Assembly (NCBI RefSeq): GCF_002854065.1
Contig: NZ_CP024147.1
Reading direction: 5' to 3' (one strand)
DNA from: Escherichia coli
GTDB lineage: Bacteria > Pseudomonadota > Gammaproteobacteria > Enterobacterales > Enterobacteriaceae
Length of the DNA: 64,000 nt
Shown here in pieces: positions 16,931 to 24,844 of this stretch; the first letter of the stretch is position 1; each line of letters opens with the position of its first letter. The position numbers and the translations under genes were made by a program. The notes beneath the pieces are model-generated. The model ran no database searches. It worked only from the letters and a program-made list of their open reading frames with translations, and was not told where the DNA came from.

Positions 16931-18799
16931 ATGAGCACTGATAATAAGCAATCATTGCCCGCGATTACCCTCGCGGCGATTGGAGTTGTCTACGGCGATA
17001 TTGGTACCAGCCCGTTATATACACTTCGTGAATGTTTGTCCGGCCAGTTTGGTTTTGGCGTTGAACGCGATGCCGTGTTTGGCTTTTTATCGCTGATCTT
17101 CTGGCTGCTAATCTTTGTGGTTTCCATTAAATATCTCACCTTCGTGATGCGGGCAGATAACGCCGGTGAGGGGGGGATCCTGACGTTGATGTCGCTTGCC
17201 GGGCGTAATACGTCGGCGCGAACCACATCAATGCTGGTGATTATGGGGCTAATCGGCGGCAGCTTTTTCTATGGTGAAGTCGTCATAACACCCGCTATTT
17301 CGGTGATGTCAGCCATTGAAGGTCTGGAAATCGTCGCCCCGCAGCTGGATACCTGGATAGTTCCCCTCTCAATTATCGTTCTCACTTTATTATTTATGAT
17401 TCAAAAGCATGGCACGGCTATGGTCGGTAAGATGTTTGCGCCGATCATGCTGACCTGGTTTTTGATTCTGGCAGGACTGGGGTTACGTAGCATTATTGCT
17501 AACCCGGAAGTGCTGCATGCGCTGAATCCGATGTGGGCGGTGCATTTCTTCCTTGAATACAAAACGGTTTCTTTTATTGCATTAGGGGCAGTGGTGCTGT
17601 CGATTACGGGGGTCGAGGCGCTGTATGCTGATATGGGACACTTTGGTAAGTTCCCTATTCGTCTGGCGTGGTTCACTGTCGTATTACCTTCCTTAACTCT
17701 TAATTACTTCGGCCAGGGAGCGCTGTTGTTAAAGAACCCGGAAGCGATTAAGAACCCGTTCTTCCTTTTGGCACCGGACTGGGCGCTGATCCCGCTGCTG
17801 ATCATCGCCGCACTGGCGACGGTAATCGCCTCGCAGGCGGTTATCTCTGGCGTCTTTTCATTGACGCGTCAGGCGGTACGTCTGGGATATTTGTCGCCGA
17901 TGCGCATTATTCACACCTCCGAAATGGAGTCAGGGCAAATCTATATTCCGTTTGTGAACTGGATGCTCTATGTCGCGGTCGTGATTGTGATTGTCAGCTT
18001 TGAGCACTCCAGCAACCTGGCGGCGGCGTACGGGATTGCGGTGACCGGAACCATGGTGCTGACGTCTATTCTCTCGACTACCGTGGCACGTCAGAACTGG
18101 CACTGGAATAAGTATTTTGTTGCGCTGATCCTGATTGCTTTCCTTTGTGTCGATATTCCATTGTTCACCGCTAACCTCGATAAACTGCTCTCCGGCGGCT
18201 GGTTGCCATTGAGCCTCGGTACTGTGATGTTTATCGTGATGACCACCTGGAAGAGCGAGCGTTTCCGCTTGCTGCGGCGGATGCATGAACATGGTAACTC
18301 TCTGGAAGCGATGATTGCTTCGCTGGAGAAATCACCGCCTGTTCGCGTGCCCGGGACCGCGGTGTATATGTCGCGTGCAATCAACGTCATTCCCTTTGCG
18401 CTGATGCATAACCTTAAACATAACAAGGTATTGCATGAGCGGGTGATTCTGTTAACTCTGCGCACCGAAGACGCGCCATATGTCCATAACGTCCGTCGGG
18501 TACAGATTGAACAACTGTCGCCCACTTTCTGGCGCGTGGTGGCAAGTTATGGTTGGCGAGAAACGCCAAACGTGGAAGAAGTTTTCCACCGCTGCGGTCT
18601 GGAAGGATTAAGTTGCCGGATGATGGAAACCTCCTTCTTTATGTCGCATGAGTCGTTGATCCTCGGCAAACGCCCGTGGTATTTGCGTCTGCGCGGCAAG
18701 CTGTACTTGCTGCTGCAACGTAATGCGCTGCGTGCACCAGATCAATTTGAAATCCCGCCAAACAGGGTTATCGAACTGGGTACTCAGGTCGAAATCTAA
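16931..18799 (+). CDS. kup: Low-affinity K+ uptake transporter Kup (TrkD)
   Basis: 622-aa polytopic membrane ORF ([34 protein letters not shown]...). Confidence 0.95.
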
Positions 18800-18804
18800 C
18801 GCCA

Positions 18805-18840
18805 GACGCCTCCTTTCTTCATAAGGGGGCGTTTTTGTTT
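18805..18840 (+). terminator. Probable intrinsic terminator after kup
   Basis: Imperfect hairpin (acgcctcc...gggggcgt) followed by TTTTTGTTTT immediately after the kup stop. Confidence 0.45.
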
Positions 18841-18934
18841 TCATGGTTAATCACCATGTAAAACGTTTCGAGGTTGATCACATTTCCGTAACGTCACGAT
18901 GGTTTTCCCAACTCAGTCAGGATTAAACTGCGGG

Positions 18935-18954
18935 TCAGCGAAACGTTTCGCTGA
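18935..18954. promoter_or_regulatory. RbsR (LacI-family) operator: perfect 20-bp palindrome TCAGCGAAACGTTTCGCTGA
   Basis: Perfect inverted repeat ending 11 bp before the rbsD ATG; the core AAACGTTTCG also occurs at 18861-18870. Confidence 0.8.
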
Positions 18955-18965
18955 TGGAGAAAAAA

Positions 18966-19385
18966 ATGAAAAAAGGCACCGTTCTTAATTCTGATATTTC
19001 ATCGGTGATCTCCCGTCTGGGACATACCGATACGCTGGTGGTGTGTGATGCTGGTTTACCCATCCCCAAAAGTACAACGCGTATCGATATGGCATTAACC
19101 CAGGGTGTACCTTCTTTTATGCAGGTGCTGGACGTCGTCACAAATGAAATGCAGGTCGAGGCTGCCATTATCGCGGAAGAGATCAAACAACATAATCCGC
19201 AACTCCACGAAACGTTGCTCACTCACCTTGAGCAGCTGCAAAAACACCAGGGAAATACCATTGAAATTCGTTACACCACGCATGAACAATTCAAACAACA
19301 AACCGCAGAAAGTCAGGCGGTAATTCGCAGCGGAGAATGTTCTCCGTATGCGAATATCATTCTCTGTGCTGGCGTGACGTTCTGA
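18966..19385 (+). CDS. rbsD: D-ribose pyranase
   Basis: Start placed at [14 protein letters not shown] (139 aa); first gene of the rbs operon. Confidence 0.9.
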
Positions 19386-23851: not shown

Positions 23852-24844
23852 TTGGCTACAATGAAAGATGTTGCCCGCCTGGCGGGCGTTTCTACCTCAA
23901 CAGTTTCTCACGTTATCAATAAAGATCGCTTCGTCAGTGAAGCGATTACCGCCAAAGTTGAAGCGGCGATTAAAGAACTCAATTACGCGCCATCAGCTCT
24001 GGCGCGTAGCCTCAAACTCAATCAAACACATACCATTGGCATGTTGATCACTGCCAGTACTAATCCTTTCTATTCAGAACTGGTGCGCGGCGTTGAACGC
24101 AGCTGCTTCGAACGCGGTTATAGTCTTGTCCTTTGCAATACCGAAGGCGATGAACAGCGGATGAATCGCAATCTGGAAACGCTGATGCAAAAACGCGTTG
24201 ATGGCTTGCTGTTACTGTGCACCGAAACGCATCAGCCTTCGCGTGAAATCATGCAGCGTTATCCGACAGTGCCTACCGTGATGATGGACTGGGCTCCGTT
24301 CGATGGCGACAGCGATCTTATTCAGGATAACTCGTTGCTGGGCGGAGACTTAGCAACGCAATATCTGATCGATAAAGGTCATACCCGTATCGCCTGTATT
24401 ACCGGCCCGCTGGATAAAACTCCGGCGCGCCTGCGGTTGGAAGGTTATCGGGCGGCGATGAAACGTGCGGGTCTCAACATTCCTGATGGCTATGAAGTCA
24501 CTGGTGATTTTGAATTTAACGGCGGGTTTGACGCTATGCGCCAACTGCTATCACATCCGCTGCGTCCTCAGGCCGTCTTTACCGGAAATGACGCTATGGC
24601 TGTTGGCGTTTACCAGGCGTTATATCAGGCAGAGTTACAGGTTCCGCAGGATATCGCGGTGATTGGCTATGACGATATCGAACTGGCAAGCTTTATGACG
24701 CCACCATTAACCACTATCCATCAACCAAAAGATGAACTGGGGGAGCTGGCGATTGATGTACTCATCCATCGGATAATCCAGCCGACCCTTCAGCAACAAC
24801 GATTACAACTTACTCCGATTCTGATGGAACGTGGTTCGGCTTAG
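23852..24844 (+). CDS. rbsR: LacI-family ribose operon repressor
   Basis: 330-aa ORF with N-terminal HTH ([24 protein letters not shown]) and periplasmic-binding-protein-like domain. Confidence 0.95.

Follow-up and report, generated by a model that had tools for sequence, protein, structure and literature searches.

The copy of the operator core that lies upstream of the ribose promoter of Escherichia coli is probably the remnant of an ancestral second operator of the ribose repressor RbsR, which was placed within a class-I CRP site and has become a weakened relic in the genus Escherichia. This reading, in which we have moderate confidence, was obtained for a window of 64,000 nucleotides of E. 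coli DNA, which is the whole stretch that was analysed. The main operator in front of rbsD is called O1 in the following and the upstream copy O2. Judged from the sequences RbsR would be expected to bind to an intact O2, RbsR and CRP would be expected to exclude each other there, and the E. coli relic would be bound weakly.

A stretch of 401 bases that includes the finding agrees to 100% with the chromosome of E. coli O157:H7. It recurs in 5,411 of 5,426 complete E. coli genomes, and in every case its place is between kup and rbsD. According to the RefSeq annotation the gene order is kup, rbsD, rbsA, rbsC, rbsB, rbsK, and rbsR, followed by mdtD on the opposite strand. The upstream neighbour kup (16931–18799, plus strand; open reading frame list and RefSeq annotation of the identical sequence) encodes a low-affinity K+ transporter. 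A terminator scan located a terminator-like hairpin followed by a T run behind kup (18804–18834, plus strand), which bounds the rbs control region on its upstream side and the sequence of which differs between genera. When the intergenic region and early rbsD were searched for an RNA element, Rfam gave only a sub-threshold match on this hairpin, and a known RNA element was dismissed as a cause because no match above the threshold was obtained.

The first gene of the operon, rbsD (18966–19385, plus strand; open reading frame list, RefSeq annotation, and NCBIfam), encodes D-ribose pyranase, and the respective NCBIfam profile was matched over residues 1–139 of 139. Its start is the ATG at 18966, which is backed by the annotation and by this profile match, and conserved alignment columns contain a Shine-Dalgarno sequence GGAG (18956–18959, plus strand) 6 nt before the ATG. 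An alternative in-frame ATG is found at 18954–18956; its A is the final base of the operator, and it would yield an open reading frame of 143 amino acids. The last gene of the operon is rbsR (23852–24844, plus strand; open reading frame list, RefSeq annotation, and NCBIfam). Its product matches the NCBIfam equivalog NF007743 over the full length of residues 1–330 with 695.6 bits as compared to a cut-off of 531, which together with the annotation bears out an earlier assignment, made from the letters alone, of a LacI-family repressor RbsR encoded at the end of the same operon.

O1 has the sequence TCAGCGAAACGTTTCGCTGA (18935–18954, no strand assigned) and is defined by its unique perfect palindrome, by a crystal structure, and by conservation. 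The first-pass annotation had described it as a perfect 20-bp inverted repeat 11 nt before rbsD, and these coordinates are exact, the gap to the ATG at 18966 comprising positions 18955–18965. The sequence occurs once in the window with 0 mismatches, and no shuffle of the window contained a match even at 3 mismatches, a tolerance at which the site is still unique. Assignment of the palindrome as the RbsR operator of the rbs promoter was likewise correct and is not new, as it is already established: the crystal structure of RbsR with rbsO at 2.1 Å was solved on GTGGGTCAGCGAAACGTTTCGCTGATGGAG (bioRxiv 10.1101/2025.04.02.646877, 2025 preprint), which equals window positions 18930–18959 but for one SNP. 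O1 does not differ from the known E. coli rbsO: sequence and place before rbsD are the same, and the operon ends with the gene for the cognate repressor. The original footprinting work on the rbs operator is said to be that of Mauzy and Hermodson in 1992. O1 has a central CG, the AAACGTTT core and CG at positions 5-6 of the half-sites (CGAAAC|GTTTCG), and it lies in the promoter region of the ribose operon which encodes its cognate repressor. An RbsR dimer sitting on O1 just downstream of the start would block transcription of rbsDACBKR until ribose releases RbsR.

The inner 16-mer of O1, AGCGAAACGTTTCGCT (18937–18952), is identical in 86 of 87 loci. Perfect symmetry over all 20 bp was found in all six sequences of the genus Escherichia, as opposed to only four of 81 others. 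The conserved unit of O1 is the inner 16 bp, and the outer two pairs probably lie outside the recognition unit. As RbsR and rbsO are in use as parts in synthetic biology, it may be of practical value that the conserved recognition unit would be the inner 12–16 bp and not the full 20 bp.

The O2 relic reads GTAAAACGTTTCGA in E. coli (18858–18871, no strand assigned; repeat scan and species alignment), and its counterpart in other Enterobacterales is (G/T/A)CGAAACGTTTCGA. It contains the 10-bp copy of the core at 18861–18870. That this core recurs there had been noted correctly before, but the spacing of about 75 bp given for it has to be corrected, as the distance from core to core in the window is exactly 80 bp. 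For AAACGTTTCG, the copy at 18861–18870 and both strands of the palindrome add up to 3 matches as compared to 0.30 expected, a number not reached in any of 100 shuffles. The palindromic part of the upstream copy comprises only the 8 bp of AAACGTTT. Scored as a 12-bp RbsR core the copy has 2 mismatches, and of such sites 8 were found in the window with 4.06 expected. Since cores with 2 mismatches are not rare in the window, the significance of the upstream copy comes from its position and its conservation. A chance repeat was discarded as an explanation, as the 10-mer is over-represented and a homologous site occurs in all 86 other species genomes.

The two halves of the relic differ in preservation. 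The right half GTTTCG is intact and the left half reads TAAAAC in place of CGAAAC, so that the site (TAAAAC|GTTTCG) differs from an RbsR operator by the missing CG of the left half. For comparison, the 30-mer around the intact O2 of Salmonella is TTAGCGAAACGTTTCGACGG and that around the relic of E. coli is CATGTAAAACGTTTCGAGGT. The first-pass annotation had proposed the upstream core as an auxiliary RbsR site. Its relation to RbsR stands, as the full 12-bp palindrome is present in 81 of 81 non-Escherichia species; for the E. coli site itself the proposal is weakened, as the CG of one half-site is gone. Judging from its sequence, the E. coli O2 probably binds RbsR weakly, if at all. Some residual binding would be compatible with the one perfect half-site plus AAAC which the relic retains, and an auxiliary operator may be weak and asymmetric and yet work, as is the case for lacO3. 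In RegulonDB the rbs operon is listed with a single RbsR operator (PMC3505978).

To follow the upstream copy through related bacteria rbsD was taken together with its upstream DNA from 80 species-level Enterobacteriaceae genomes. All 80 loci contain exactly two AAACGTTT cores, located at about −105 and about −26 from the ATG. In an unanchored MAFFT alignment the upstream core emerged as a sharply bounded block with the consensus GCGAAACGTTTCGA followed by GATCACA, a heptamer invariant in the Enterobacteriaceae alignments; upstream of the block the sequence is not alignable across this family. A first search for RbsD homologues yielded only proteins which were at least 83% identical and no outgroups, and these came from a protein search seeded with Proteus and from PLSDB, in which some chromosomes are deposited as plasmids. 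The 12-mer CGAAACGTTTCG was intact at the position of O2 in all 81 non-Escherichia species, which span three families (Enterobacteriaceae, Proteus/Providencia, and Erwinia) in a sampling without Yersiniaceae, Pectobacteriaceae, and Hafniaceae, so that an order-wide occurrence of O2 is not thereby proven. The distance between O1 and O2 over 87 loci was 77 bp in two, 78 bp in ten, 79 bp in 46, and 80 bp in 29; these loci are phylogenetically related, and fewer independent events lie behind them than the counts suggest. The same module is found, with a spacing of 77–78 bp, in Proteus mirabilis, three Providencia, and two Erwinia species, although what precedes it there is not kup but ravA, a short-chain dehydrogenase gene or the gene for a TPP enzyme.

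The rbs operators of the Vibrionaceae read ATCGAAACGTTTCGAT and have the same 12-mer as their core. Because of this the 12-mer was taken as the shared RbsR core with position 7 free, and the O2 of the non-Escherichia species is therefore a full-grade operator sequence. The layout of O2 with the CRP site was not present in the Vibrio and Aeromonas rbs loci examined. One operator was seen in each of the Vibrio loci examined except that of Vibrio campbellii (L083). There rbsD is preceded by two perfect operators of the CATCGAAACGTTTCGATG type at −216 and −89 from the ATG, at a distance of 127 bp, with a TGTGA motif after the upstream one, and this pair may be an independent instance of an arrangement with two operators.

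O2 overlaps with a CRP-type site. The 22-mer CGTTTCGAGGTTGATCACATTT (18864–18885, no strand assigned, centre at 18874.5) was assigned by where it lies, by its conservation and because the promoter is known to depend on CRP. The left half TTCGA (18867–18871) is non-consensus and the right half TCACA (18878–18882) is consensus, and both halves of the TTCGA-N6-TCACA site are invariant in 87 of 87 loci. Eight of the ten core positions match, and the pattern is as such unremarkable in the window, in which 16 were found and 26 expected. O2 and the 22-mer have positions 18864–18871 in common and their centres are 10 bp apart. Activity of the rbsD promoter was described to be linear with CRP reporter activity and with external cAMP, and among six sugar promoters rbsD requires the most CRP activity, about three times that of lac, and ranks last (PMC4304618). 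The rbs genes are also found among CRP feed-forward loops (PMC6121374).

Further downstream a conserved block GATGGTTTT (18898–18906, plus strand) probably serves as the −35 region, a role suggested by columns which are invariant or at least 90% conserved and by the fixed distance from O2 and the CRP site. It is a poor match to the −35 consensus TTGACA, and poor −35 matches are usual at activator-dependent promoters. Within the Enterobacteriaceae the constraint on the block seems stronger than a weak −35 would need. The putative −10 hexamer TAAACT (18924–18929, plus strand) has four of six consensus positions and is the best −10-like sequence, moderately conserved and at a fixed distance from the −35 block. 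No promoter was detected in a strict scan for the sigma-70 consensus, and conservation therefore served to deduce the −10 and the start. Transcription would start at about 18936, which is 7 nt after TAAACT, and with this position as +1 the CRP site would be centred at −61.5, O2 at −71.5 and O1 at about +8 to +10. The distances from the CRP site to the −35 block and to the −10 are fixed and all of the variation between 77 and 80 bp is located between the −10 and O1, from which it follows that the place of O2 is set by CRP and the promoter and not by O1.

The explanation we propose is that the ancestral O2 was built into the promoter-distal half of a class-I CRP site. In the other Enterobacterales the right half-site GTTTCG of O2 would use the same bases as the left CRP half-site TTCGA, and because the two half-sites share bases RbsR and cAMP-CRP most likely cannot bind at the same time. 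With centres 10 bp apart the same major groove would be needed by both proteins, so that RbsR at an intact O2 would exclude CRP. The repressor could then act in two ways, blocking the polymerase at O1 and denying the activator its site at O2, and the overlap of the upstream core with the CRP site, which the first-pass annotation had not noticed, is more in keeping with RbsR competing against the activator than with cooperation between the two operators. That RbsR and not CRP alone accounts for O2 is concluded from three features: five conserved bases of the left half of O2 fall outside the CRP 22-mer, the non-consensus CRP half-site is frozen, and at the two positions where the RbsR consensus (GTTTCG) and the CRP consensus (TGTGA) conflict all 87 loci have the TC preferred by RbsR and not GT. 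An overlapping operator which keeps the CRP half-site suboptimal would account for the high CRP need of rbsD. In Escherichia, with CG replaced by TA in the distal half-site, O2 would be at best a weak RbsR site and its remaining bases would persist mainly as the CRP half-site and its flank. A more encompassing version of this proposal should be regarded as tentative, as possible rather than probable: the Enterobacterales would have two rbs operators, the second one fused to the CRP site, with repressor and activator competing for 7–8 bp, a suboptimal CRP half-site and ribose lowest in the sugar hierarchy, and Escherichia alone would have dismantled O2.

PurR and Cra were considered as binders of O2 and were discarded by eye, as the O2 core CGAAAC does not agree with their motifs. 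The operator core of Cra is TGAAAC, and the operator half-site of PurR is GCAAAC, which is unlike the CGAAAC of RbsR at the very positions changed in Escherichia.

The loss of the intact form is confined to one genus in our sample. All six sequences of the genus Escherichia read GTAAAACGTTTCGA at O2, and among about 5,400 E. coli genomes searched all but one carry TAAAACGTTTCG. In the promoter-distal half-site TA has taken the place of CG at positions 5-6, and the TA state is fixed in five Escherichia species and nearly all E. coli. A query with a repaired O2, made on two common haplotype backgrounds, never matched at full length with 100% identity in 5,409 E. coli genomes, and the native O2 query was 100% identical in 5,115 of these 5,409. 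Because Salmonella, Citrobacter, Klebsiella, Erwinia, and Proteus are all intact, the loss is placed in the ancestor of Escherichia, the intact O2 being by parsimony the ancestral state. E. coli JB2 (L093, NZ_CP182203.1, locus positions 61–75) has the sole intermediate allele among the 5,409 genomes, GCAAAACGTTTCGA (GCAAAAC), in which one of the two ancestral bases is present; it also has a T to G exchange in the CRP spacer.

A working auxiliary RbsR operator in E. coli, which would cooperate with O1 for instance by looping over the 80 bp, is rather unlikely. It would agree with the exact copy of the 10-bp core and its one perfect half-site, with the full operator at the homologous site in 81 other species, with an O1–O2 distance held within 77–80 bp, and with the weak asymmetric auxiliary operators known from lac (O3). 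Dimer–dimer contacts have also been argued to be possible in natural LacI/GalR paralogs (Meinhardt et al., PMC3505978). However, the CG of the left half-site is gone genus-wide and one RbsR site is annotated for the operon (PMC3505978). Looping, which the first-pass annotation had raised as an option for the upstream core, has become less likely for several reasons. RbsR is a dimer from 10 nM to 3 µM (bioRxiv 10.1101/2025.04.02.646877); with its 330 amino acids it aligns to positions 6–330 of a LacI-type profile of 358 positions, so that the C-terminal about 28 residues and with them the tetramerisation tail of LacI are absent, and a tetramer or dimer–dimer bridge feature was not found in it. 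In a study of chimeras the LacI-DBD/RbsR protein (LLhR) depended less than 2-fold on operator spacing under conditions where GalR-, TreR-, and LacI-based proteins showed clear looping (PMC3505978). In addition, the 3-bp range in spacing amounts to ~100 degrees of twist, and the variable segment lies between the −10 and O1. Looping between O1 and O2 is thus unlikely.

Still less probable is that the O2 block is conserved only as a CRP site, or as a contact for alpha-CTD or another factor, and resembles an operator by coincidence. NCGAA is invariant outside the CRP 22-mer, for which CRP provides no explanation, and the non-consensus TTCGA is frozen in 87 of 87 loci with the bases preferred by RbsR at both conflicting positions. 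The conserved block is exactly the 12-bp palindrome common to O1 and the Vibrio rbs operators and sits in the promoter of the operon which encodes RbsR. What such an explanation can draw upon is that eight of the fourteen O2 bases are inside the CRP 22-mer, that the right CRP half is equally invariant, that the block survives in E. coli despite its broken RbsR-type symmetry, and that cores of the AAACGTTT type are common to many LacI-family operators. It is conceivable, though very improbable, that O2 was repurposed in E. coli, the CG to TA exchange having made or joined a new element which is bound by a different factor. An imperfect inverted repeat with 9 of 10 pairs, TTTTCATGGT-TAATC-ACCATGTAAA, abuts O2 at 18838–18862. 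It takes in the substituted TA bases, and fixation of TA in five Escherichia species and nearly all E. coli would also fit with repurposing, but the left arm of the repeat is conserved neither in E. coli nor in the genus (the haplotypes L002 and L004–L006 differ), no known motif was recognised and no Rfam match obtained, and two transitions in one half-site readily fit relaxed constraint. An ancestral operator competing with CRP and lost in Escherichia is the reading we retain.

Among known systems the lac operon is closest in layout. There O1 is located at +11, the CRP site at −61.5 and the auxiliary O3 at −82, and the LacI tetramer loops O1 to O3. Both promoters have an operator of the LacI family past the start and a second operator-like site ~80–90 bp upstream of this main operator, and the CRP site of rbs would, like that of lac, be of class I and centred near −61.5. 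They differ in that O3 is located beside the CRP site whereas O2 of rbs is 10 bp closer and shares bases with the CRP half-site, and in that LacI is a tetramer whereas RbsR is a dimer without sign of looping. Anti-activation by CytR and CRP at deoP2 and cdd resembles the proposed arrangement in that a LacI-family repressor acts at the site of the activator. CytR binds next to CRP cooperatively through a protein–protein contact, whereas the geometry of rbs O2, with the same face, a shared major groove and centres 10 bp apart, would predict exclusion. More than one operator for a dimeric member of the family is also known from gal OE/OI, the two purR operators and ascFB (PMC3505978). In these cases neither operator is located in a CRP half-site. 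Both are annotated, and binding to both has been shown by experiment, whereas only one is annotated for rbs.

The RegPrecise regulog of RbsR in Enterobacteriales is listed with 17 sites in 11 regulons of 12 genomes, and RbsR and PurR motifs are described as slightly different, as far as the accessible part of the source goes (Ravcheev et al. 2014). Some second RbsR sites are probably already recorded in RegPrecise as predictions, and the ratio of 17 sites to 11 regulons suggests some families with only one site. The accessible text of this paper makes no mention of an overlap with CRP or of a loss in Escherichia (Ravcheev et al. 2014). A literature search, with older key papers outside its scope, found neither form of O2, nor the sequence of the CRP site, nor a second RbsR site or the start site of rbsD. 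Mauzy and Hermodson 1992, Laikova 2001, Shimada 2013 or RegPrecise may already have reported a second site; the layout of O2 with its CRP overlap and the lineage-specific loss are apparently undescribed. The single-operator picture of rbs was drawn from E. coli and would represent a derived state, and if this is true the model organism E. coli gives a wrong picture of how the operon was regulated ancestrally. Should RbsR bind to O2, the promoter would offer an uncomplicated example from nature of one stretch of DNA shared by a repressor and a global activator, and the sequence itself would give a reason why the ribose promoter responds weakly to CRP. The loss of O2 would be a clean lineage-specific rewiring event of two nucleotides.

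A further element resembling an operator was noticed post hoc within rbsD. The sequence CGAAACGTTGCT (19208–19219), 269 bp downstream of the centre of O1, has a perfect left RbsR half-site and two mismatches in the right one. Across the 80 species the five-codon window from codon 82 has the lowest synonymous variability in rbsD (0.09 versus a mean of 0.45), and at CGAAACGTTGCT the codons GAA, ACG, and the rare TTG are 100% fixed, each synonymous choice being the one which maximises the match to the RbsR core. The stretch of low variability covers ~30 nt (19191–19220, codons 76–85) and is longer than an operator, and the patch is absent in Proteus. As candidate roles, a downstream operator of auxiliary function, a site for some other sRNA and a signal for RNA processing come into question. 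A third, intragenic half-operator at 19208–19219 in a lac-like layout of three sites is a possibility raised by the match.

Pairing with the small RNA DsrA, the sequence of which was confirmed to 100% in E. coli genomes, was discarded as the cause of the constraint on codons 76–85, as the patch pairs weakly (−11.7 kcal/mol) and the duplex is located elsewhere. RNAduplex placed a contiguous 16-bp duplex between DsrA and rbsD at ~19263–19279 (nt ~298–314 of the coding sequence) with about −22 to −28 kcal/mol and a second predicted site at ~19240–19255. The 16-bp duplex is situated roughly three quarters along rbsD and agrees with the published description of the DsrA target.

Some database records were found to deserve attention. 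Whole chromosomes are filed as plasmids in PLSDB, namely NZ_OL790811.1 (Proteus, 4.08 Mb) and NZ_AP026896.1 (Aeromonas, 4.94 Mb), and also the E. coli chromosome NZ_CP134663.1 (4.90 Mb). A record titled 'Chryseobacterium sp. 18061' (L059, CACSKA010000004.1) has an rbs promoter of enterobacterial type, and its RbsD shares 89% identity with the E. coli protein; it is nearly the same as the neighbouring record of 'Citrobacter sp. 18056', and its title is probably due to mislabelling or contamination.
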